Shown: positions 19,899 through 38,308 of the stretch, piece by piece
How positions within the stretch are numbered: the first letter of the stretch is position 1
How the letters are laid out: each line of letters starts with the position of its first letter
DNA from: Escherichia phage ECO07P1
Length of the DNA: 64,000 nucleotides
Direction: 5' to 3' (one strand)
Sequence record: OP172784
Notes under the pieces: generated by a model
The model's input: the letters and a program-made list of their open reading frames with translations, nothing else
Databases searched by the model: none
What the model was told of the DNA's origin: nothing
Program-made: the position numbers and the translations under genes

Positions 19899-20141
19899 TT
19901 AAAAGCTTTCTTCTACTTCATCGTCTGAATCTTCTAATTCAGCTCTTTTTCCTGCCAAAGCATCTCTCACAGAGATGTCATCAGTATCTTTTAATTCAGT
20001 TTCTTTAACTCTTTTCTTGTAATAAGCTTCAAGTTCTTCTAAACCTTCTAATGTTTGACAAGAGGCAATTTTACCCATAAATTCATCAATAGAAGCTTCA
20101 TAAAGAAATTGTTTAAATTCTAGTAACATCTTTTTCTCCAA
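19899..20141 (-). CDS. small acidic protein downstream of uvsW (UvsW.1-like)
   Basis: 80 aa ORF directly 3' of uvsW on the same strand. Confidence 0.5.
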   Translation of the reverse strand: MEKKMLLEFKQFLYEASIDEFMGKIASCQTLEGLEELEAYYKKRVKETELKDTDDISVRDALAGKRAELEDSDDEVEESF

Positions 20142-20154
20142 AGGGCCGAAGCCC

Positions 20155-21666
20155 TTATAAATTAACTGTTTTCATTACGTAATTAAATTTTTCATCTGCG
20201 TAGCGCTGAATACGATCAATGCCATGTTTTAAAAGATAGTTCAAATGAACGTATTTCTTTTTCGTATTAGCAGATTTTGGCTTAACACCGCAATCATCTA
20301 TGAGGTCCCAGACTGTTGCGATTGTTTTAGAACCATGCTTACGTAATACGCGACCTATTGTTTGCAATACAATAATTTTAGATTTAACACCGTGCGCTAA
20401 AACAACGTGATGCAGATTTTTAACTGAAATACCAGTAGAAAATACACCATAACTAGCTACTATAATTATTCCTTTACCGTTTTCAGCTAGGGTTTTCATT
20501 ACGTTGCGTGTTTCGGTATCAACTTCCCCTGATACGTAATAAACTTTATCGTATTCATTTTTAATTAAATCGAAAATAGCTTTACCGTGCGATACGTGTT
20601 TAAACATGACAAAAGCGTTTTCATCTTTTTGTGCAAGTTTAATAGCTAATTTAGCGATCCATTTATTTCTTTTACTGAGCCCAGTAATAATTTTTATTTC
20701 TTCTTGGTAAGTTTTTCCCTTTAATTTAGTAGTGAACTCATCAGGATAGCGAAGAAAAATACTATTAATTTTTAACTCAGTTACTTGTCCATCTTCCATT
20801 AATTTAGAAGTCGTTACTGGCTTAAATATTTCACCAAACATTCCAACATACTGCATGATATTAGCTTTGCCATCGCGCAATGAACCGGACAAACCAAATT
20901 TAAACATACAGTTATTTAAACCTGATATGATAGATGAAATACTTTTTCCTGTAGCAAGATGGCATTCATCATTCATCATCATTCCAAACTGTGAGAACCA
21001 TTCTTTCGGTTGTTTTACTACAGTTTGCCATGTACCAACAACGACTGGTGCATCATTTTTATATTTATCATCTTTTGATGCTCCACCACCGATTTTCTTT
21101 ATCATTGCATGACTGAATAAACGATAGTCAACAAAGTCATCAGCCATCTGAGTTGTCAGAGCAGTTGTTGGAACAATGATAAGAATTTTACCTTCATAAT
21201 TTTCCAAATAATAACGTGCAAGCAAAGCTTGAATTAAAGATTTACCTGCGGATGTTGGAAGATTAAGAATTCTACGACGATTAACTAATCCTTCGAACAC
21301 TGCATCTTTTTGATACCAGTGCGGTTCAATTCTTTTATTTCCTGAATAGATTTCTAATTTAGAAAGCCATTCATCAAAATCTTTTCTTGATAATTCTTCT
21401 TTTTCGTTAATCTGCGGGTCAATCCAGGCTTTATAGCCAAAGTTATCACAGAACTTTTTAATTTGCCCGACTAAGCCGAATGGAAGAAGTCGATTATAAT
21501 CTAAAAGACGGATTCGCCCATCCCAATGACCATATTTGTACTTCGGATTAAAACGATACCCATCAGCTTCAAAGCTAAAGAAATCACGGAGTTCATGAAA
21601 TGCACTTTCTTCACAATCAATTCTCACGTGACTAAAATCATAAAAATGTACTTTAATGTCAGTCAT
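20155..21666 (-). CDS. uvsW: UvsW DNA/RNA helicase (SF2)
   Basis: 503 aa; Walker A (PTSAGKSLI) and DECH box (MMMNDECHL); length as T4 UvsW; late promoter motif just upstream. Confidence 0.9.
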   Translation of the reverse strand: MTDIKVHFYDFSHVRIDCEESAFHELRDFFSFEADGYRFNPKYKYGHWDGRIRLLDYNRLLPFGLVGQIKKFCDNFGYKAWIDPQINEKEELSRKDFDEWLSKLEIYSGNKRIEPHWYQKDAVFEGLVNRRRILNLPTSAGKSLIQALLARYYLENYEGKILIIVPTTALTTQMADDFVDYRLFSHAMIKKIGGGASKDDKYKNDAPVVVGTWQTVVKQPKEWFSQFGMMMNDECHLATGKSISSIISGLNNCMFKFGLSGSLRDGKANIMQYVGMFGEIFKPVTTSKLMEDGQVTELKINSIFLRYPDEFTTKLKGKTYQEEIKIITGLSKRNKWIAKLAIKLAQKDENAFVMFKHVSHGKAIFDLIKNEYDKVYYVSGEVDTETRNVMKTLAENGKGIIIVASYGVFSTGISVKNLHHVVLAHGVKSKIIVLQTIGRVLRKHGSKTIATVWDLIDDCGVKPKSANTKKKYVHLNYLLKHGIDRIQRYADEKFNYVMKTVNL

Positions 21667-21685
21667 GTCTAAATACCATGTAATA

Positions 21686-21693
21686 AATATATC
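21686..21693 (-). promoter_or_regulatory. late promoter upstream of uvsW
   Basis: TATTTATA on plus strand (TATAAATA on minus) about 20 nt upstream of the uvsW start. Confidence 0.5.
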
Positions 21694-21716
21694 TATATTT
21701 ATACTGAGGAAATATT

Positions 21717-22397
21717 ATGATAGATAAAGATTATATTGCAGAGCTGAAGGCTCTTGATGATAATAAAGAAGCTAAGGCTAAATTAGCTGAATATGCTGAA
21801 CAGTTTGGTATAAAGGTCAAAAAGAATAAATCTTTTGATAATATCGTTGTTGATATTGAAGAAGCCCTCCAGAAGCTCGCTAGCGAACCTATGCCAGAGA
21901 CTGATGGGTTATCTATTAAAGACTTAATCAATGCTGCTGATGCTGCAGAAGGATTAAAATATGACGATGAAGAAGTCAATCCAGAAGCAGCACTTCTGAT
22001 TGATTCTCCGGTTAAATCTGACATTAAAATTGAAGTAGTAGAAAAGGATAAAATTCCTGAAAATACTGATGTTTTGATTGAAGATACTCCTTTTGTTGAA
22101 GAAAAATTCGAGCAGGCCGTAGCTGAGATTATTGAATCTGAAAAGCCGTCTGTATTTACTCTTCCGGAAAACTTTAGTCCGAATCTTCAGCTGATTGGAA
22201 AAAATCCAGGATTCTGTACTGTTCCTTGGTGGATTTATCAATGGATTGCTGAAACTCCGGATTGGAAATCTCACCCAACTAGTTTTGAACACGCGTCAGC
22301 ACACCAAACTTTATTTAGCTTAATTTATTACATTAACCGTGACGGATCAGTTTTAATTCGTGAAACACGCAACTCTTCTTTCGTGACATTAAAATAA
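21717..22397 (+). CDS. inh: Inh-like protein (inhibitor of prohead protease)
   Basis: 226 aa ORF immediately upstream of hoc, same length and position as T4 inh. Confidence 0.65.
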   Translation: MIDKDYIAELKALDDNKEAKAKLAEYAEQFGIKVKKNKSFDNIVVDIEEALQKLASEPMPETDGLSIKDLINAADAAEGLKYDDEEVNPEAALLIDSPVKSDIKIEVVEKDKIPENTDVLIEDTPFVEEKFEQAVAEIIESEKPSVFTLPENFSPNLQLIGKNPGFCTVPWWIYQWIAETPDWKSHPTSFEHASAHQTLFSLIYYINRDGSVLIRETRNSSFVTLK

Positions 22398-25124: not shown

Positions 25125-25152
25125 AAAAGGGACCTTTCGGTCCCTTTGTTTT
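25125..25152. terminator. bidirectional terminator between rnlB (+) and gene 24 (-)
   Basis: AAAAAGGGACC-TTTC-GGTCCCTTTGTTTT. Confidence 0.65.
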
Positions 25153-26434
25153 ATTCATCAACGATAATTTTTGGCAGTTTAACACCTAATAAAACAGACA
25201 AATCTGAACGACCCGCCATTTTATCCATGTCTCCACCATCAATTATTCTTGCTTCTTTTTCATCTTTTGCTACAGTGTAAGGATTTGCAGATAAAGCATA
25301 TCTAACTAATAAACCGATAGATGGCTGCAAACTTTCTGGATCGACTACAACTTTAAATGCACCTACATGTTCAGGGTCATCTAAGTCAAGACCTTCTGTA
25401 TACGGAGCATAGAAAATTGATCCGACGATTTCTTTTTCACCGATATTTTCTACTACACCAACGATTACATAATCTAATGGGCTGTTAGTATCGCAATAAA
25501 GCGGTAAACCATTAGCTAAGAACCCGTAGGCATTTTGTGAAAGATATTTGTCATCTTCTGGTTTATGTTTTAACCAACCTGATGCAGCAAGAATCGCAGC
25601 GGCACGAGCTGAAGCAACACAGAACGTTGCAGTATAAGTTGATTCTTTTTGGATATGCGAAACCATTTCACACACCATTCGGTATAATGAACGACCAGCT
25701 TCAGGTGCAGATGCATAACTCAAATCAATGAATCCAGTATCAGTAATTCCTGTAACTTTATAGCGTTTTGACACTGTAATCAAAGACTGTAGAATATCTT
25801 TATTAATTTCATCTGCCATTTCAGTTGCAAGCAAATCTTCCAAGAAATTAGGAGCATCGAATCCATTTGCTTCTAAATCTTGTGCTAATTCAACCGTGAT
25901 GCCAGTTTTAAGTTTACGAGATTTAACTGCGGTTTGCCATTTATTAATCTGGAATCTAGCATCAGCAATTTCGCTATCAGAGCTTTCAAATTTGCTTGTT
26001 ACTGCAGCATCAGAAAATAGACGAACCTTTAAAAGAACGATTGCAATCTGAAGAGCTAATTCTAAATCGCTTTCTTCAATATCAGCAAATGGTGTATCTT
26101 CTAATACTTTATAAACGATGTTATTATATTTGAATAAATCGCCTTTATTGAGAGTTAATTTAGACTCTTCTGTTAATTCTGTGATTTGTTCTCGGTCTAC
26201 ATATCCAGCTTCTCCAGCGTAAGTAGCACCAGTTTTAAACGTAAATTCGTTATCTGGGTTAAGGTATTTGATACCATAAAAAGCAGCAACAGGTTGATTA
26301 GTTCTTTGCGTTGCTACAATGTCAGAATATATTAATTTAGTGGTAGCGCGAGTCAAAGCAACGAGATTTGGGCGACCGATTGAGTTGCTATTCGTTGTGG
26401 TTGATTCGCGCAGAAGTTCGTTGATTTTAGCCAT
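25151..26434 (-). CDS. 24: head vertex protein gp24
   Basis: 427 aa; capsid-fold paralog directly downstream of gp23; late promoter at 26462-26469. Confidence 0.85.
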   Translation of the reverse strand: MAKINELLRESTTTNSNSIGRPNLVALTRATTKLIYSDIVATQRTNQPVAAFYGIKYLNPDNEFTFKTGATYAGEAGYVDREQITELTEESKLTLNKGDLFKYNNIVYKVLEDTPFADIEESDLELALQIAIVLLKVRLFSDAAVTSKFESSDSEIADARFQINKWQTAVKSRKLKTGITVELAQDLEANGFDAPNFLEDLLATEMADEINKDILQSLITVSKRYKVTGITDTGFIDLSYASAPEAGRSLYRMVCEMVSHIQKESTYTATFCVASARAAAILAASGWLKHKPEDDKYLSQNAYGFLANGLPLYCDTNSPLDYVIVGVVENIGEKEIVGSIFYAPYTEGLDLDDPEHVGAFKVVVDPESLQPSIGLLVRYALSANPYTVAKDEKEARIIDGGDMDKMAGRSDLSVLLGVKLPKIIVDE

Positions 26435-26461
26435 TGCGCTTTCCTTTTGGTTTATATGATT

Positions 26462-26469
26462 TATTTATA
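26462..26469 (-). promoter_or_regulatory. late promoter upstream of gene 24
   Basis: TATAAATA on minus strand about 28 nt upstream of the gp24 start. Confidence 0.6.
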
Positions 26470-26484
26470 CCATAAAAACAACTA

Positions 26485-26504
26485 AAGGGACCCGAAGGTC
26501 CCTT
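26485..26504 (-). terminator. hairpin between genes 23 and 24
   Basis: AAGGGACC-CGAA-GGTCCCTT immediately 3' of gp23 on the minus strand. Confidence 0.5.
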
Positions 26505-26517
26505 AAATCGTCAAAGA

Positions 26518-28083
26518 TTAGATACCTTTAACATATACACGGCGGAAGTAAGCGTTTTTACCAAGGCTATTCAGAATAGAAGGCATACCGCTCTGGATGC
26601 GAGAAGCCGGAGCCTGAGCAGCGGATTCTGCAAATGGGTTGATACCGATACCGTAACGAGTTTTGAATCCCATTACTGGTTGGAAGTTCTTCGGATCGGA
26701 ACCACGCAGCGGAGTCAGAGCTACATATGGAGCATAGTAAATACCAGCATCCATTTCGTTCGGACCTTTATAACCTACAGTGAAATAATCCTGTTTAGCA
26801 TACTGGTCGATATATACACGGTATTTACCACCCAGAACACCAGCAAATACTGACTTGGTAGTATCAGTGTTAAAGCCGGTAGCCAGACCCTGTGCAGCAT
26901 AAGAAATGCCAGTATCAACTGAAGCCAGAACGTTAACTACGTTACGGGAAGCGATAATGAAGTTACCTTCACCACGACCGGTCTGACGAGCAATTTCAAC
27001 TGCTTCTTTGTCAATCTGGAACAACAGAGCTTTAAAGGATTCACCTGCCCAGCGAGCACCACGAATATCGATTGGGTCCTGGAAGTCAAATACACCAGCT
27101 TTAGAACCCGGAGTCAGGGTCATACCAGATTTACCAACCTGTGCGGAGTAGTTAATCCAATCAACAATTTCACGGTTGATTTCCAGCATGATTTCGGTAG
27201 CCAGAATACCAGACAGTTCAGCATCAGCATCCATACCGTGAACAGCGCGGAGGTCTTGTGCTAATTCGATAGAGTAAGCAGCTTTCAGCTGGCGAGATTT
27301 AGCTTCGATAACTTGCTTATCGATACGGAAGCCCATTTCATTCCATGGGTTATCGGTAGAACCGTTGAAACCTTCCTGGAGTTCAGCGATAGAAGTAGCC
27401 ATACCTTCAGCGATTTCTACCAGTACACCAGCTTCCATTTGTTTCTTAATTTCAGCATCTAATTTAGCAGCATCAGTCGCACCAGCATCGATTGTTACTA
27501 CAGCGGAAGCTTGTAGATACACAGTACCAGTTTCCTGGAAGAAGTGAGTATAGATATCACCTACAACGGTTTGTGTGCTAGCAGCCAGAGCTGGGAATTT
27601 CTTAGCAGCACCCTGACCAGAGAACATTGCGTCTGGACCATACATTGGGTGGAATGCTTCTTTAGCATCGGCAGCGATCGGATCTTTACCATATACTGCG
27701 CGCAGTGCGAATACCTGACCGGTTGGGCTGCTCATTGGTTGAACACCGCAAATATCGAAAGCAATCAGGTTAGGAATAGCACGACGTACCATACCCATAA
27801 CAGCCGGGCCAATCTGAGTTACTGCGCCAGAAGTCTGACCTGCAGCGATGTTAGTAGCATTGTAACCGTGGTCACCACCGATTTCAGCTTCTGTTAAGAA
27901 AGAACCAAATGCCTGAGCAATTTTTTCGTCTTTATATTCCGGAGCTGTCTGGAAATCTTTTTCCTGGTTTTCAAAGATTTTAGCGATAATCGCTTGTTTG
28001 CTATTAGCAATTTCCGGTAAACCTTCACCTTCCAGTAATGGCTTCCATTTGTTCAAAAGTTCAGCTTTAGTTTTGATAGTCAT
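26518..28083 (-). CDS. 23: major capsid protein gp23 (precursor)
   Basis: 521 aa; matches T4 gp23 length; synteny 20-67-68-21-22-23-24. Confidence 0.95.
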   Translation of the reverse strand: MTIKTKAELLNKWKPLLEGEGLPEIANSKQAIIAKIFENQEKDFQTAPEYKDEKIAQAFGSFLTEAEIGGDHGYNATNIAAGQTSGAVTQIGPAVMGMVRRAIPNLIAFDICGVQPMSSPTGQVFALRAVYGKDPIAADAKEAFHPMYGPDAMFSGQGAAKKFPALAASTQTVVGDIYTHFFQETGTVYLQASAVVTIDAGATDAAKLDAEIKKQMEAGVLVEIAEGMATSIAELQEGFNGSTDNPWNEMGFRIDKQVIEAKSRQLKAAYSIELAQDLRAVHGMDADAELSGILATEIMLEINREIVDWINYSAQVGKSGMTLTPGSKAGVFDFQDPIDIRGARWAGESFKALLFQIDKEAVEIARQTGRGEGNFIIASRNVVNVLASVDTGISYAAQGLATGFNTDTTKSVFAGVLGGKYRVYIDQYAKQDYFTVGYKGPNEMDAGIYYAPYVALTPLRGSDPKNFQPVMGFKTRYGIGINPFAESAAQAPASRIQSGMPSILNSLGKNAYFRRVYVKGI

Positions 28084-30247: not shown

Positions 30248-31872
<1,625 letters not shown>

Positions 31873-31904
31873 TTAAGCAGGATGGGGATTTCTCCCCATT
31901 CATT

Positions 31905-32396
31905 TTATTCCCAATAATCGAGAGCGAGAGTTACTTCAAAGGTTTGGATTTCATTGTTTGAATCCCAATCTAATTGAAGTTCACCCACGTTAGTAGGCCA
32001 CAGGCCTTTAATTTCGACTTCTTTTGTTACGGTTTTAGCGTCACGAGCATATTGGCGAACAACAGCGCTCTTTTTATACTCTGCTGGTTTTCCACCAGTA
32101 ATTTCGTTCCCTTGCCCAGCAGCAATGCTTTGCCAGTCAACAAACTTCTGGCGAGCATCATGTGCCTCATCGTTCATTACTGTAACAGTCCAGTCATCGA
32201 ATGTACGATCGCCTGCTACGTTAATTTTACGGTTCATAAATCCGACTGGAATTTTTTCTACAATACCAGCTGGTAAAGCAGTGGCTTTACATTGAAACGT
32301 AAAATTTTGTCCAAGATAAGAAATTTCTACTTGGAATAAGTTAGGTCGAGCAAAATCACCAGATTCAAACGCTCGTGTTACATCATCTACAAACAT
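31905..32396 (-). CDS. 19: tail tube protein gp19
   Basis: 163 aa, as T4 gp19; late promoter motifs at 32411-32418 and 32470-32477. Confidence 0.9.
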   Translation of the reverse strand: MFVDDVTRAFESGDFARPNLFQVEISYLGQNFTFQCKATALPAGIVEKIPVGFMNRKINVAGDRTFDDWTVTVMNDEAHDARQKFVDWQSIAAGQGNEITGGKPAEYKKSAVVRQYARDAKTVTKEVEIKGLWPTNVGELQLDWDSNNEIQTFEVTLALDYWE

Positions 32397-32410
32397 ATTA
32401 GCCTCTGTAG

Positions 32411-32418
32411 TATTTATA
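32411..32418 (-). promoter_or_regulatory. late promoter upstream of gene 19 (a second copy lies at 32470-32477)
   Basis: TATAAATA on minus strand, two copies about 60 nt apart. Confidence 0.55.
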
Positions 32419-32478
32419 TCCCTATGTTTAACCTAGGGCATATAGAATTAAAGAATTAAGGATATAGTGTATTTATAT

Positions 32479-32496
32479 GGCCTGCCGAAACAGGCC
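32479..32496 (-). terminator. hairpin between HNH gene and gene 19 promoters
   Basis: GGCCTG-CCGAAA-CAGGCC. Confidence 0.4.
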
Positions 32497-32503
32497 TTTA
32501 GAA

Positions 32504-33121
32504 TCATTCTAGTAAATCCCAAAGATCTACGCTATTTCTTTTTGACTTTTCTCGGTTAGATTCCCAAGTGATTATTTCTAAATTATTAATACCGCCAATT
32601 ATTTTAGCAGGAATTAAATTATCAAAACCGTATTTGATAGATACCTTATGATCAAGTTGGTAAGCACCTTCTGTACCACACACTCCTATCTTATCAGCAT
32701 TTGGCCATTTTGACCAAATTTTCTTATGCTTACGAGTTTCTCTATATACCGATGAAATATATTCACGCATTTCAGATTTATTTGGGTTCCATCTTGGATG
32801 ATTTACGCCATGCATACATTCTACGGTTTTTCCTTTATTCGCTGAACCATATGAATTATTATGCATTTTATCTTTATGACGGCAATCACAACAAATATCA
32901 GTGTTTCTTCCAATGCGTTGATTATATTCAATTCCACATTTATCGCAACGACATTTTACATACGCAGTACTACCTTTAATGTCTTCAACTTTAACATCAA
33001 TTTCATAATACTTAAATCCGTGTTTAACCGCTCCAAGAGGTGTTAATTTATATCCCTTTGACTGATAATGTTTAAAATTTGATGGTACAATTTTTACTTT
33101 AATGAATTTAGAAATAATCAC
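32504..33121 (-). CDS. free-standing HNH-family homing endonuclease-like protein
   Basis: 205 aa; Cys cluster CRCDKCG..CCDCRH and HNH-like element QLDHKVSIKYGF..NLEIITWESNREK; inserted between gene 18 terminator hairpin and gene 19 promoters. Confidence 0.6.
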   Translation of the reverse strand: MIISKFIKVKIVPSNFKHYQSKGYKLTPLGAVKHGFKYYEIDVKVEDIKGSTAYVKCRCDKCGIEYNQRIGRNTDICCDCRHKDKMHNNSYGSANKGKTVECMHGVNHPRWNPNKSEMREYISSVYRETRKHKKIWSKWPNADKIGVCGTEGAYQLDHKVSIKYGFDNLIPAKIIGGINNLEIITWESNREKSKRNSVDLWDLLE

Positions 33122-33138
33122 TTGATTCCTCGAGAACA

Positions 33139-33154
33139 GGGGCCGAAGCCCCTT
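33139..33154 (-). terminator. hairpin 3' of gene 18
   Basis: AGGGGC-CGAA-GCCCCT. Confidence 0.5.
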
Positions 33155-33159
33155 ATCAA

Positions 33160-35139
33160 TTAACCTGCAAGACCAGTTAACTCATCGAAATCTGCACCAG
33201 TAGCAGTTGCGACGAAATTCAAAGTAATATAATTTATACTGCGCGCCGGTTGGATGTAGAATGTTGCAACAAACTCATTTCTATCAATTACTGACGGAGT
33301 GTTATTTGTTGTATCGCAAACTACACGATATTCATAAATTCCACCGAGAGCTTTAATTCCCTGCAAGTACTGGGAAGTTTCTGTGCGGAACGATGAACGA
33401 GTAAACGCGTTGTTTAATTCGAACAAACGATATTTTGAACTACGTCCGATATTCGTTTTCAACATATTAAACAGACGACGAACGTTAATACGATCAAATG
33501 GAGAAGGAACAGAAGTAGCTGTTTTATCACCATACAATACGTAACCATCACCACCTGTACCAGTTACTGGGTTGATAGCTTCTTGGTATAAACGGTCGCG
33601 CTGCGCCTGGCGAGTTTCAATAGCAAGTTTAATAACGTTAAGAATCTGGCCACGATTATAACCAGCTGGAGACATCCAAGTCTGAGAAACGTTATCAGTT
33701 CTTGCGCATAAACCAGCAATATCAGCTGCTAATGGAACCCAACGATTCACATCATTATATTTGTCATACTGATACTTGTAGTTACCATCAATTGCTGCAT
33801 AGGTTGAACTGATATTAAAGTTATTATCAGTGTATGAACCTGCTGCAGTTCTCCAATTGACTAAGTTATCAACAGCACGAGTTACAGGAATTCCAACCAC
33901 AGTTTCACGCGGTGGTGAGCACAATACCAAGCAATCTTGGCGAGCATCACCAATTGAAACAACATGTTTTTGGACAGTAGATGCTGTTTCAAGAGATTCA
34001 CCGGCACAAGAACCAGCAATAAACAACTGAACGTCAACAGATTCACGGTCAGCAAAGAAGTCCCAGGCTTCCATCAAATCTCCTGCTGTTACTTCAGCAT
34101 TTGACGATAATCCACCAGACAGAGTTAAAATTCCGGAGAAGCCTTCTGGCCAGTTTTGTGCAGTTGCGAAAATATATTCTGAACCGCCTTTTGCGAAAAA
34201 GTCATCAATATAGATGTTACTATCGTAAATATCTTTTTCACCACGCTTTGTTGAAAGAACAACGCTTTGAACAATAGCATCATTGCGACGAACTATAATA
34301 GCGTATTGTGAATCAGTTTGTGGTCCATATCCAAACACTGCTTTGGCAGTAGATGCGCGTGTTCCGCCACCTGGATAAATTGGTAGTAATGCAGAAGCAC
34401 CTTTTGCGTAGTCAGCTTTAGATACGATTTCAATTTCGATTTTATCGCCCAACTCGCCTGGATAAAGAGCTACTACTCCTGGAATTCCATATTTTTCGAG
34501 ATTTGTTTGAAAGTCAACAGCTGTCATGGCAGCTTCGGCATTTTCAATTTCAGCTAATAAAATACCAGAATCAGTAATAATTTTTCCAAGAGTTATTACT
34601 GCAGCTAAACCAGAGGAAGACGAAGAAATTTCTGCGGTCCAGTTAGAACCTAGTGCTGGATATTCGCCTACTTCTTTCGCTTTAGCGATAATTTTTGCGG
34701 TAGGAATATTAATTTTCTTAATTTTTCCATCAGCATCTACTTCGGTAATTTTACATTCTGTTTCAATGTCTTCTGAAACATACTTAACCGTGATTTTATC
34801 TCCAACCGCGTAGTTACTACCTGGGGTAGAAATAGTGTATTCAATATTACCGGCAATCGGAGATGAGTTTTTAGCGGTATCTCTATCGACAGCACGCACA
34901 ACTCGCAAATCATTTCCGTATTGTAAGAAATTCATTGCAGACATAAAATAGTCAGCAGTTTCAGCTGTAGGTTGACCAAAAGTATTAACTAAATCTACTT
35001 CATTTGTAACCTGTTTAATTTGAAAAGCAGGACCCCACTGGAATTTACCGGCCAGAGCTGCTGTACCAGTAGAGTTATTAACCACGGTGCTTTGAACCGT
35101 AGTTTCTTTGAGCTCAATGCCCGGAGATAATAAAGTCAT
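33160..35139 (-). CDS. 18: tail sheath protein gp18
   Basis: 659 aa, as T4 gp18; synteny; late promoter at 35168-35175. Confidence 0.9.
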   Translation of the reverse strand: MTLLSPGIELKETTVQSTVVNNSTGTAALAGKFQWGPAFQIKQVTNEVDLVNTFGQPTAETADYFMSAMNFLQYGNDLRVVRAVDRDTAKNSSPIAGNIEYTISTPGSNYAVGDKITVKYVSEDIETECKITEVDADGKIKKINIPTAKIIAKAKEVGEYPALGSNWTAEISSSSSGLAAVITLGKIITDSGILLAEIENAEAAMTAVDFQTNLEKYGIPGVVALYPGELGDKIEIEIVSKADYAKGASALLPIYPGGGTRASTAKAVFGYGPQTDSQYAIIVRRNDAIVQSVVLSTKRGEKDIYDSNIYIDDFFAKGGSEYIFATAQNWPEGFSGILTLSGGLSSNAEVTAGDLMEAWDFFADRESVDVQLFIAGSCAGESLETASTVQKHVVSIGDARQDCLVLCSPPRETVVGIPVTRAVDNLVNWRTAAGSYTDNNFNISSTYAAIDGNYKYQYDKYNDVNRWVPLAADIAGLCARTDNVSQTWMSPAGYNRGQILNVIKLAIETRQAQRDRLYQEAINPVTGTGGDGYVLYGDKTATSVPSPFDRINVRRLFNMLKTNIGRSSKYRLFELNNAFTRSSFRTETSQYLQGIKALGGIYEYRVVCDTTNNTPSVIDRNEFVATFYIQPARSINYITLNFVATATGADFDELTGLAG

Positions 35140-35167: not shown

Positions 35168-38308
<3,141 letters not shown>

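Follow-up and report, generated by a model that had tools for sequence, protein, structure and literature searches.

A putative free-standing HNH-type homing endonuclease gene between the tail sheath and tail tube genes of Escherichia phage ECO07P1

Introduction

What kind of gene is the 205-amino-acid (aa) open reading frame (ORF) that separates the tail sheath gene (gene 18) from the tail tube gene (gene 19) in Escherichia phage ECO07P1, and how might it have come to be there? The ORF was studied in a 64,000-nucleotide (nt) stretch of sequence record OP172784, hereafter called the window, whose late-gene region is T4-like (Tequatrovirus) and carries gene 17, gene 18, the 205-aa ORF, gene 19 and gene 20, in that order, on the minus strand. 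An earlier note, made from the letters of the window, had placed the ORF between genes 18 and 19 and read it as an inserted HNH endonuclease; the placement is confirmed by the ORF list and the window coordinates. The ORF is most probably a free-standing homing endonuclease gene, the product of which combines an N-terminal zinc ribbon with a C-terminal HNH-type (H-N-N) nuclease domain. This reading is carried by an insertion polymorphism with exact boundaries, by the domain architecture and catalytic-type residues of the protein, by purifying selection, by mosaic alleles and by the recurrence of related genes at the same locus in other phages; catalysis, a target site and homing are what we infer from it. 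The elements that define the locus are the following.

32504..33121, minus strand: 205-aa ORF, putative homing endonuclease, with a GTG start and an intact reading frame (ORF list)
32505..33159, minus strand: whole inserted cassette of ~655 nt, present here where T4 has the 8 nt TACGGTGC (alignments with T4 and T6)
33160..35139, minus strand: gene 18, tail sheath, 659 aa, upstream flank
31905..32396, minus strand: gene 19, tail tube, 163 aa, downstream flank

An insertion with base-exact boundaries

T4 itself has no gene at this position, as the earlier note had stated: its 18-19 spacer matches positions 32397-32504 of the window at 100% and then jumps directly to the gene 18 stop codon. An alignment of the 18-19 junction with T4 and relatives, which that note had proposed as a check, yields exact insertion boundaries. 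T4 reads ...GGTTAA/TACGGTGC/ATTCTAAAGGCC... and the window reads ...GGTTAA/655 nt/ATTCTAAAGGCC..., the left edge of the cassette falling straight after the TAA of gene 18 and the right edge within the ORF's own TGA. With these edges, the cassette carries its own hairpin, ribosome-binding site and ORF, and the hairpin of T4 is pushed to the far side. The empty site, GGTTAA/TACGGTGC/ATTCTAAAGG, is the same in every ORF-less Tequatrovirus locus examined, and the locus is a polymorphism of ORF-bearing and ORF-less forms with base-exact boundaries between identical flanks.

The inserted gene also differs in base composition from the late genes around it, the comparison having likewise been proposed beforehand: its GC content is 31.6%, as against 39.8% in gene 18 and 40.4% in gene 19. 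The ratio of nonsynonymous to synonymous substitution rates (dN/dS) is 0.14 relative to the 94.6%-identical allele of phage Ec_YwIITB1 and 0.10 relative to T6 in the C-terminal domain that both share; the ORF is under purifying selection and is a functional gene.

A predicted C-terminal nuclease domain of the HNH type

32507..32791, minus strand: C-terminal HNH-like (His-Me finger) nuclease domain, approximately aa 111-205

Conservation in this domain was read from an alignment of 29 full-length sequences (A2) and from sets of 64 and 50 diverse domain relatives (A7 and A8), together with two further alignments (A5 and A6). Y154, D157, H158, N180, L181 and N189 are invariant in every alignment, and K192 is invariant or nearly so (at least 90% of sequences). 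As judged from these alignments, D157-H158, N180 and N189 make up the D-H...N...N pattern of the H-N-N variant of HNH, with a conserved D-H at the end of strand 1, a putative structural Asn and a putative metal-ligand Asn in the helix. The spacing of 9 between the two Asn residues is the same as that between N854 and N863 in SpCas9. The two elements on which the earlier note had based its nuclease reading, a Cys-rich cluster (CRCDKCGIEY..CCDCRH) and an HNH-like element (QLDHKVSIKYGF..NLEIITWESNREK), are both present in the translation and, in the alignments, coincide with conserved core motifs of the nuclease-like domain.

The AlphaFold (AF2) model has a pLDDT of 86.9 for the full length and 93.9 for the nuclease domain alone. 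It places a strand at residues 154-158, a helical insert, a second strand at 181-185 and a helix at 186-192, a predicted beta-beta-alpha core of the beta-beta-alpha-metal kind that characterizes the HNH/His-Me superfamily, and its closest structural matches are PDB entries 4h9d and 5h0o, both small phage-type HNH nickases. Profile libraries point in the same direction when the relatives are searched. Among the 50 domain relatives, sub-threshold Pfam matches fall on HNH_4 (five), HNH (two), HNH_5, HNH_3 and GmrSD_C (one each), the best E values of the HNH matches being 0.002-0.004; among the 64, PHROG matches are to endonuclease VII in 19 (best E 9e-8), to HNH endonuclease in 6 (1e-6), 2 and 1, and to homing endonuclease in 2, and three small relatives bear the JGI name McrA. 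The sole library match of the ORF itself is PHROG 5104, annotated as 'unknown function' (E 1e-90). The C-terminal domain is assigned to the His-Me/HNH fold with high confidence.

An N-terminal zinc ribbon and a modular domain family

32882..33121, minus strand: N-terminal domain, approximately aa 1-80, with beta strands and a CxxC...CxxC zinc ribbon (alignment A2)

The AF2 model contains two domains joined by a low-confidence linker (residues 81-110). In the zinc ribbon of the first, C59, C62 and C77 are invariant in A2, and C80 falls outside the invariant and near-invariant lists. Weak matches to the DUF4379 treble-clef and to Zn_ribbon_8 are seen in 8 and 4 of the 29 members, respectively, and the N-terminal part, modelled at a pLDDT of ~90, matches PDB profiles of mS66 and of zinc fingers. 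This domain is presumed to be the DNA-binding, specificity-determining module.

An exhaustive profile search with the C-terminal domain recovered 5,284 clusters at 50% identity, 3,224 of them at E ≤1e-10, and Pfam holds no model for the nuclease domain itself. Among the best 150 of the 5,284 clusters, the domain lies at the C-terminus in almost all, and its N-terminal partners in longer members include arrays of HTH_7 (resolvase-type helix-turn-helix), NUMOD1, NUMOD3, zinc ribbons, DUF4379 and DUF7487. A constant, putatively catalytic domain is joined to a variable, presumed DNA-binding module, the combination expected of a modular enzyme; a constant catalytic domain with interchangeable DNA-binding beads is the classic design of homing endonucleases (PMC2988022).

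Patchy distribution and two alleles at one site

Distribution was counted in the GenBank phage collection, since a scan of IMG/VR gave 15 related loci, too few for population statistics. Among ~500 Tequatrovirus-like records, defined as matches to the end of gene 18 at ≥90% identity, ~117-121 (~24%) carry an ORF at the 18/19 site. The gene is thus free-standing, intergenic and absent from T4 and about three-quarters of its close relatives, which supports the homing-endonuclease insertion first suggested for it.

Two alleles occupy the site. The allele of the window and of phage RB3 (≥90% protein identity) occurs in 47 records, and the remainder carry the T6-type allele. Within nearly identical flanks, identity between the two is 30% for aa 12-134 but 90% for aa 135-205, the hairpin and the first codons being common to both; the low-identity part covers the zinc-ribbon domain, the linker and the first helix of the nuclease domain. 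Such a split between alleles in near-identical flanks makes the 18/19 locus a mosaic. The window ORF is ~50% identical to the T6 allele and ~65% identical to copies in Klebsiella, Enterobacter, Raoultella and Erwinia phages, whereas genes 18 and 19 on either side of it match those of T6 at 95% identity or more; the history of the ORF thus appears discordant with that of its host phage, as judged by identities rather than by formal tree reconciliation. A similarly patchy distribution in other phages is suggested by counts of organism names in the ORF search and the gene 18 search (Klebsiella 40 and 251, Acinetobacter 15 and 64, Enterobacter 9 and 46), which are rough record counts rather than per-genome tallies.

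At closer range, the RB3 copy shares 96.6% identity with the window ORF, and the 763-nt 18-19 intergenic stretch that includes it is identical in DNA to the copy in phage W143. A few GenBank records label the protein a homing endonuclease or HNH endonuclease; other labels are hypothetical protein, holin, head morphogenesis protein and type II restriction endonuclease. Two records under unexpected host names, MG010123.1 ('Staphylococcus phage SAJK-IND', 32 kb) and OR584013.1 ('Pseudomonas phage PsgM02F'), hold Tequatrovirus 18-ORF-19 DNA at ~98% and ~93% identity, respectively, and these host names look like contamination or mislabelling.

Relatives in other phages

Between the sheath and tube genes, full-length relatives occur in at least six other lineages of the T4 superfamily, among them Dhakavirus (Bp7, PSD9 and UP19), Acinetobacter Hadassahvirus AbTZA1, Aeromonas Ceceduovirus AS-zj, Citrobacter phage Ursula and Sinorhizobium Emdodecavirus phiM7 (33% identity). 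Relatives that share the nuclease domain alone are found elsewhere. In Acinetobacter phage 133, one sits between rnlA-A and rnlA-B and interrupts rnlA (locus L008:1570-3647); in the Klebsiella jumbo phage KP13-7, one lies directly upstream of an nrdA fragment (L009:1856-3365); and a Vibrio phage carries one at a different locus. In Campylobacter phage CP21 (L033:289-3659), the sheath gene is itself in pieces, and a 388-aa ORF with the same nuclease domain sits inside it, precisely where the part that corresponds to gp18 residues 222-515 ends and that for 517-643 begins. Gene-splitting positions of this kind are typical of homing endonucleases. The recurrent association with the sheath gene is notable: gene 18 could contain a conserved target, or the endonuclease gene could be a long-term resident that has been lost many times over.

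Some of these loci contain further candidate endonuclease genes. In CP21, the 388-aa ORF is followed by three additional genes annotated as 'putative homing endonuclease'. In Bp7 (L005:3210-5630), genes 19 and 20 are separated by a second ORF, annotated 'HNH endonuclease', and the portal gene is annotated as split (gp20' and gp20); Pfam gives this ORF a weak match to SegE GIY-YIG (E 0.005), and the HNH label may be wrong.

Expression signals around the inserted gene

33139..33152, minus strand: cassette-borne hairpin GGGGCUUCGGCCCC with a UUCG loop, just 3' of the gene 18 stop (sequence and fold)
33126..33131, minus strand: Shine-Dalgarno sequence GAGGAA, its GAGG core 6 nt before the GTG start (read from the sequence)
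32479..32496, minus strand: ancestral hairpin GGCCUGUUUCGGCAGGCC, directly after gene 18 in T4 and after the inserted ORF here
32470-32477 and 32411-32418, minus strand: two exact late-promoter boxes TATAAATA, serving gene 19 and lying outside the insert (motif scan)

The earlier note had described a gene 18 terminator hairpin upstream of the ORF and late promoters of gene 19 downstream of it. The promoters hold, as two exact TATAAATA boxes. Of the terminator, the hairpin stands, but it has no U-tract and received no terminator call. A second hairpin, GGCCUGUUUCGGCAGGCC, which is T4's own after gene 18, had been missed; it too has no U-tract after it and was not called by the terminator scan. 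With the stem-plus-U-tract pattern fitted by neither, an intrinsic-terminator reading was rejected for both. The GGGGCUUCGGCCCC hairpin, which is also found in the T6 allele, folds with its extension at -19.6 kcal/mol (z = -2.4), and the GGCCUGUUUCGGCAGGCC hairpin at -12.8 kcal/mol (z -2.9). Rfam has no match in 31700-33500, and an intron or structured-RNA explanation of the insert was set aside.

The predicted extended stem at the UUCG hairpin (33100-33165) pairs with the UCGA of UCGAGGAA, the ribosome-binding region of the ORF; the GAGGAA Shine-Dalgarno sequence, which T6 keeps, is predicted to be partly paired in this fold. Such pairing, along with the GTG start, suggests that translation of the ORF is held down. 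The minus strand has no exact TATAAATA box over 33121-35139, the next one upstream being at 35168-35175, before gene 18, which is the likely origin of read-through transcription into the ORF.

A search for the target site

33211..33244, minus strand: gene 18 block with 12 silent substitutions in 13 codons relative to T4, 49-82 nt before the stop

This block is a 34-nt patch within gene 18 sequence that is otherwise identical to T4, and it exists in at least three haplotypes (T4-type, window-type and T6-type). A cluster of silent changes such as this has the appearance expected of a protected target, and the block was taken up as a candidate site. Most ORF-bearing records have the window-type block, as do some ORF-less ones; ORF-less phages carry either version. 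A chimeric query that joined the T4 block to the ORF junction found three ORF-bearing records with the top identity of 95.8%, and Ec_YwIITB1 (locus L025), fetched from among them, has a complete T4-type block. The block was accordingly rejected as a necessary immunity determinant: ORF-less phages have it, and an ORF-bearing phage has the T4 version. From the sequences compared, it appears to be a linked polymorphism, associated with the ORF but not strictly so, and it could have arisen as a co-conversion footprint, as a patch from a diverged donor or as a selected RNA or DNA signal. The TATAAAT(T) within the block was also considered as a late promoter of the ORF's own and rejected; it is not an exact TATAAATA box, and it is not required, because it is absent from the ORF-bearing Ec_YwIITB1.

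The insert breaks up the empty junction, and this junction is the simplest candidate target. Conceivably, the enzyme also cuts the genome that carries it, as SegH and Hef are reported to do in work of Sandegren et al. from 2005.

Comparison with known endonucleases of T4-type phages

The ORF resembles the HNH genes mobA-mobE of T4, of which MobE is an experimentally characterised member (PMC2790892, PMC2988022), in being a free-standing intergenic ORF between conserved genes with a patchy distribution among close relatives, and in pairing a predicted His-Me/HNH catalytic module with a separate DNA-binding module. It differs in having its nuclease domain at the C-terminus and a zinc ribbon as the DNA-binding part. 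There is no detectable similarity between the ORF and the mobE-like protein of W143 (BLASTP E 0.1), and whereas that protein matches NUMOD3 at 3e-12, the ORF matches neither NUMOD3 nor HNH_3 nor any other Pfam model. With neither similarity to this mobE-like protein nor a NUMOD3 architecture, it falls outside the T4 Mob group by sequence. The single-domain Gme HNH (4h9d) and GVE2 HNH (5h0o) proteins share 10-19% sequence identity with the ORF, which carries an extra N-terminal zinc-ribbon domain and, unlike them, has ~22 residues between the catalytic His and the structural Asn.

Hef of phage U5 is another unorthodox free-standing endonuclease of T4-related phages, and phage LIMEstone1 is reported to carry a Hef-like gene upstream of its tail tube gene (PMC3296691). 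A 'Hef-like' identity, prompted by the LIMEstone1 table and by the annotation of phage 133, was considered for the ORF and dropped: Hef-type enzymes are assigned to the Vsr-like (EDxHD) family, which has a different fold (PMC3239194), and no listed relative is labelled Hef. The fold evidence for the ORF is of the His-Me kind and not Vsr, which sets it apart from Hef by family description rather than by sequence. PHROG 5104, RB3_165 and T6ORF160 are the same protein family, entered as 'hypothetical protein' with no assigned function. Table 5 of Petrov et al. 2010 lists one 'other HNH' for T6 and none for RB3 (PMC2993671), so that the ORF seems to have gone uncounted in RB3.

The window also differs from T4 in the endonuclease genes that it lacks. 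Absence of the seg-type insertions near genes 23/24 and uvsW had been proposed, and it holds: genes 23 and 24 lie 83 nt apart (region 25151-28083) and inh and uvsW 50 nt apart (21666-21717), which leaves no room for segD or segE. In W143 (L029:22891-25347), a NUMOD3-containing 'mobile endonuclease E'-like gene splits uvsW; in the window, uvsW (20155-21666) is uninterrupted and is followed after 13 nt by a short uvsW.1-like ORF (19899-20141). Even these two near-identical phages thus have different sets of endonuclease genes.

Weighing the explanations

Several results weigh against a homing endonuclease. A profile search, which the earlier note had put forward as a check, came out divided: the relatives match HNH and endonuclease VII PHROGs and, below threshold, Pfam HNH models, but Pfam gave no match to the ORF itself even at an E value of 10. 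Neither NCBIfam, scanned with the C-terminal domain and its relatives, nor PADLOC gave a match, no curated HNH profile reached its gathering threshold on the ORF, and Foldseek against PDB returned noise and no match. PDB sequence profiles matched only zinc fingers in the N-terminal part and, spuriously, leucine-rich repeats in the C-terminal one, on the stretch 'P-EIIG-I-NL-I--W--N'. No experimental report on the ORF protein was found in the T4 homing-endonuclease literature (the gene's own names were not queried). No cleavage site was identified, and at least one fetched ORF-bearing phage, and probably three, keeps the T4-type block in gene 18. Finally, the checked relatives, down to ~30% identity in very distant phages, lie almost all at the sheath/tube position, a constancy that would also be the pattern of an old resident gene with frequent loss.

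Such a resident gene would be an accessory nuclease of the tail cluster, immobile or rarely mobile, often lost, and retained for an advantage to the phage itself, for example the exclusion or degradation of co-infecting relatives. The order sheath, ORF, tube is indeed kept in Tevenvirinae, Twarogvirinae, Emmerichvirinae, Emdodecavirus and one unclassified Straboviridae phage, purifying selection on the ORF also speaks for it, and the flanking gene 18 block is not needed for self-immunity. This explanation is nevertheless considered unlikely: loss alone leaves the 8-nt filler of the empty site unexplained, as it does the two alleles, 30% identical, in near-identical flanks, and the closer likeness of the window ORF to the Klebsiella and Enterobacter phage copies than to that of T6. 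Exclusion and homing are in any case compatible and not mutually exclusive in T-even phages (PMC2993671, PMC2988022).

It is still less probable that the protein is a non-catalytic, nucleic-acid-binding zinc-ribbon protein, for instance a regulator of tail genes, in which the HNH-like residues are vestigial. Sequence-level matches to curated or solved proteins are confined to the zinc-ribbon region, and the ORF lies between two highly expressed late genes with hairpins on both sides; both points favour this reading. The most conserved residues of the family are, however, the catalytic-type D-H, N and N, the C-terminal domain stays constant over 5,284 clusters in which the putative binding modules vary, and T4 manages without the gene. 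Almost no weight is given to a packaging-associated HNH nickase that aids terminase as in phages of the HK97 and GVE2 type, for although the best structural matches are small phage-type HNH nickases, one of which (5h0o, GVE2 HNH) is terminase-associated, and the ORF lies one gene downstream of the terminase large subunit, it is missing from T4 and most Tequatroviruses, which package normally, its domain relatives interrupt unrelated genes such as rnlA, and the T4-type terminase has a nuclease of its own.

If the ORF is a free-standing homing endonuclease gene, its course can be sketched by analogy with those T-even genes of this type that have been characterised by experiment (PMC2988022). In a mixed infection, the enzyme would nick or cut an ORF-less genome at or near the 18/19 junction, and recombinational repair on an ORF-bearing template would copy the 655-nt cassette, with some flanking markers, into the broken genome. 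Expression would probably be low and late, by read-through of gene 18 transcripts, because the cassette has no exact-consensus late promoter, and the GTG start and the partly occluded ribosome-binding site would restrict it further.

Significance

The ORF is an ordinary element for such phages, an uncharacterised representative of a known kind that belongs to a divergent HNH sub-family not yet covered by curated libraries. T-even genomes differ mainly in their load of free-standing endonuclease genes, which makes the finding routine for T4 biology and of low surprise to a specialist. What it adds is modest: the family is large, it keeps to the sheath gene even in distant phages, and a single site holds a mosaic of two alleles. 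A widespread family, mostly named 'hypothetical' or mislabelled and including PHROG 5104, can now be annotated as HNH-type homing endonucleases whose DNA-binding module is a zinc ribbon or of another type. The 18/19 junction is a candidate recombination hot-spot, which is relevant to the engineering and typing of therapeutic Tequatroviruses, and two alleles at one site, together with the recurrent sheath-gene association, offer a tractable case for the study of target choice and retention.

A wider picture may be put forward tentatively, as a possibility on the doubtful side. In it, a single endonuclease lineage would have stayed at the 3' end of the sheath gene through a large part of the T4 superfamily, with hosts among the Gamma-, Alpha- and Epsilonproteobacteria, and would lie inside the sheath gene in Campylobacter phages, with two competing alleles in Tequatrovirus that combine unrelated specificity domains with a shared catalytic domain. 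If true, this would supply evidence of cross-genus spread, which according to Petrov et al. 2010 is lacking for the intron-borne elements of T-even type phages (PMC2993671), and a naturally occurring case in which homing endonucleases are retargeted and alleles compete at a structural gene.

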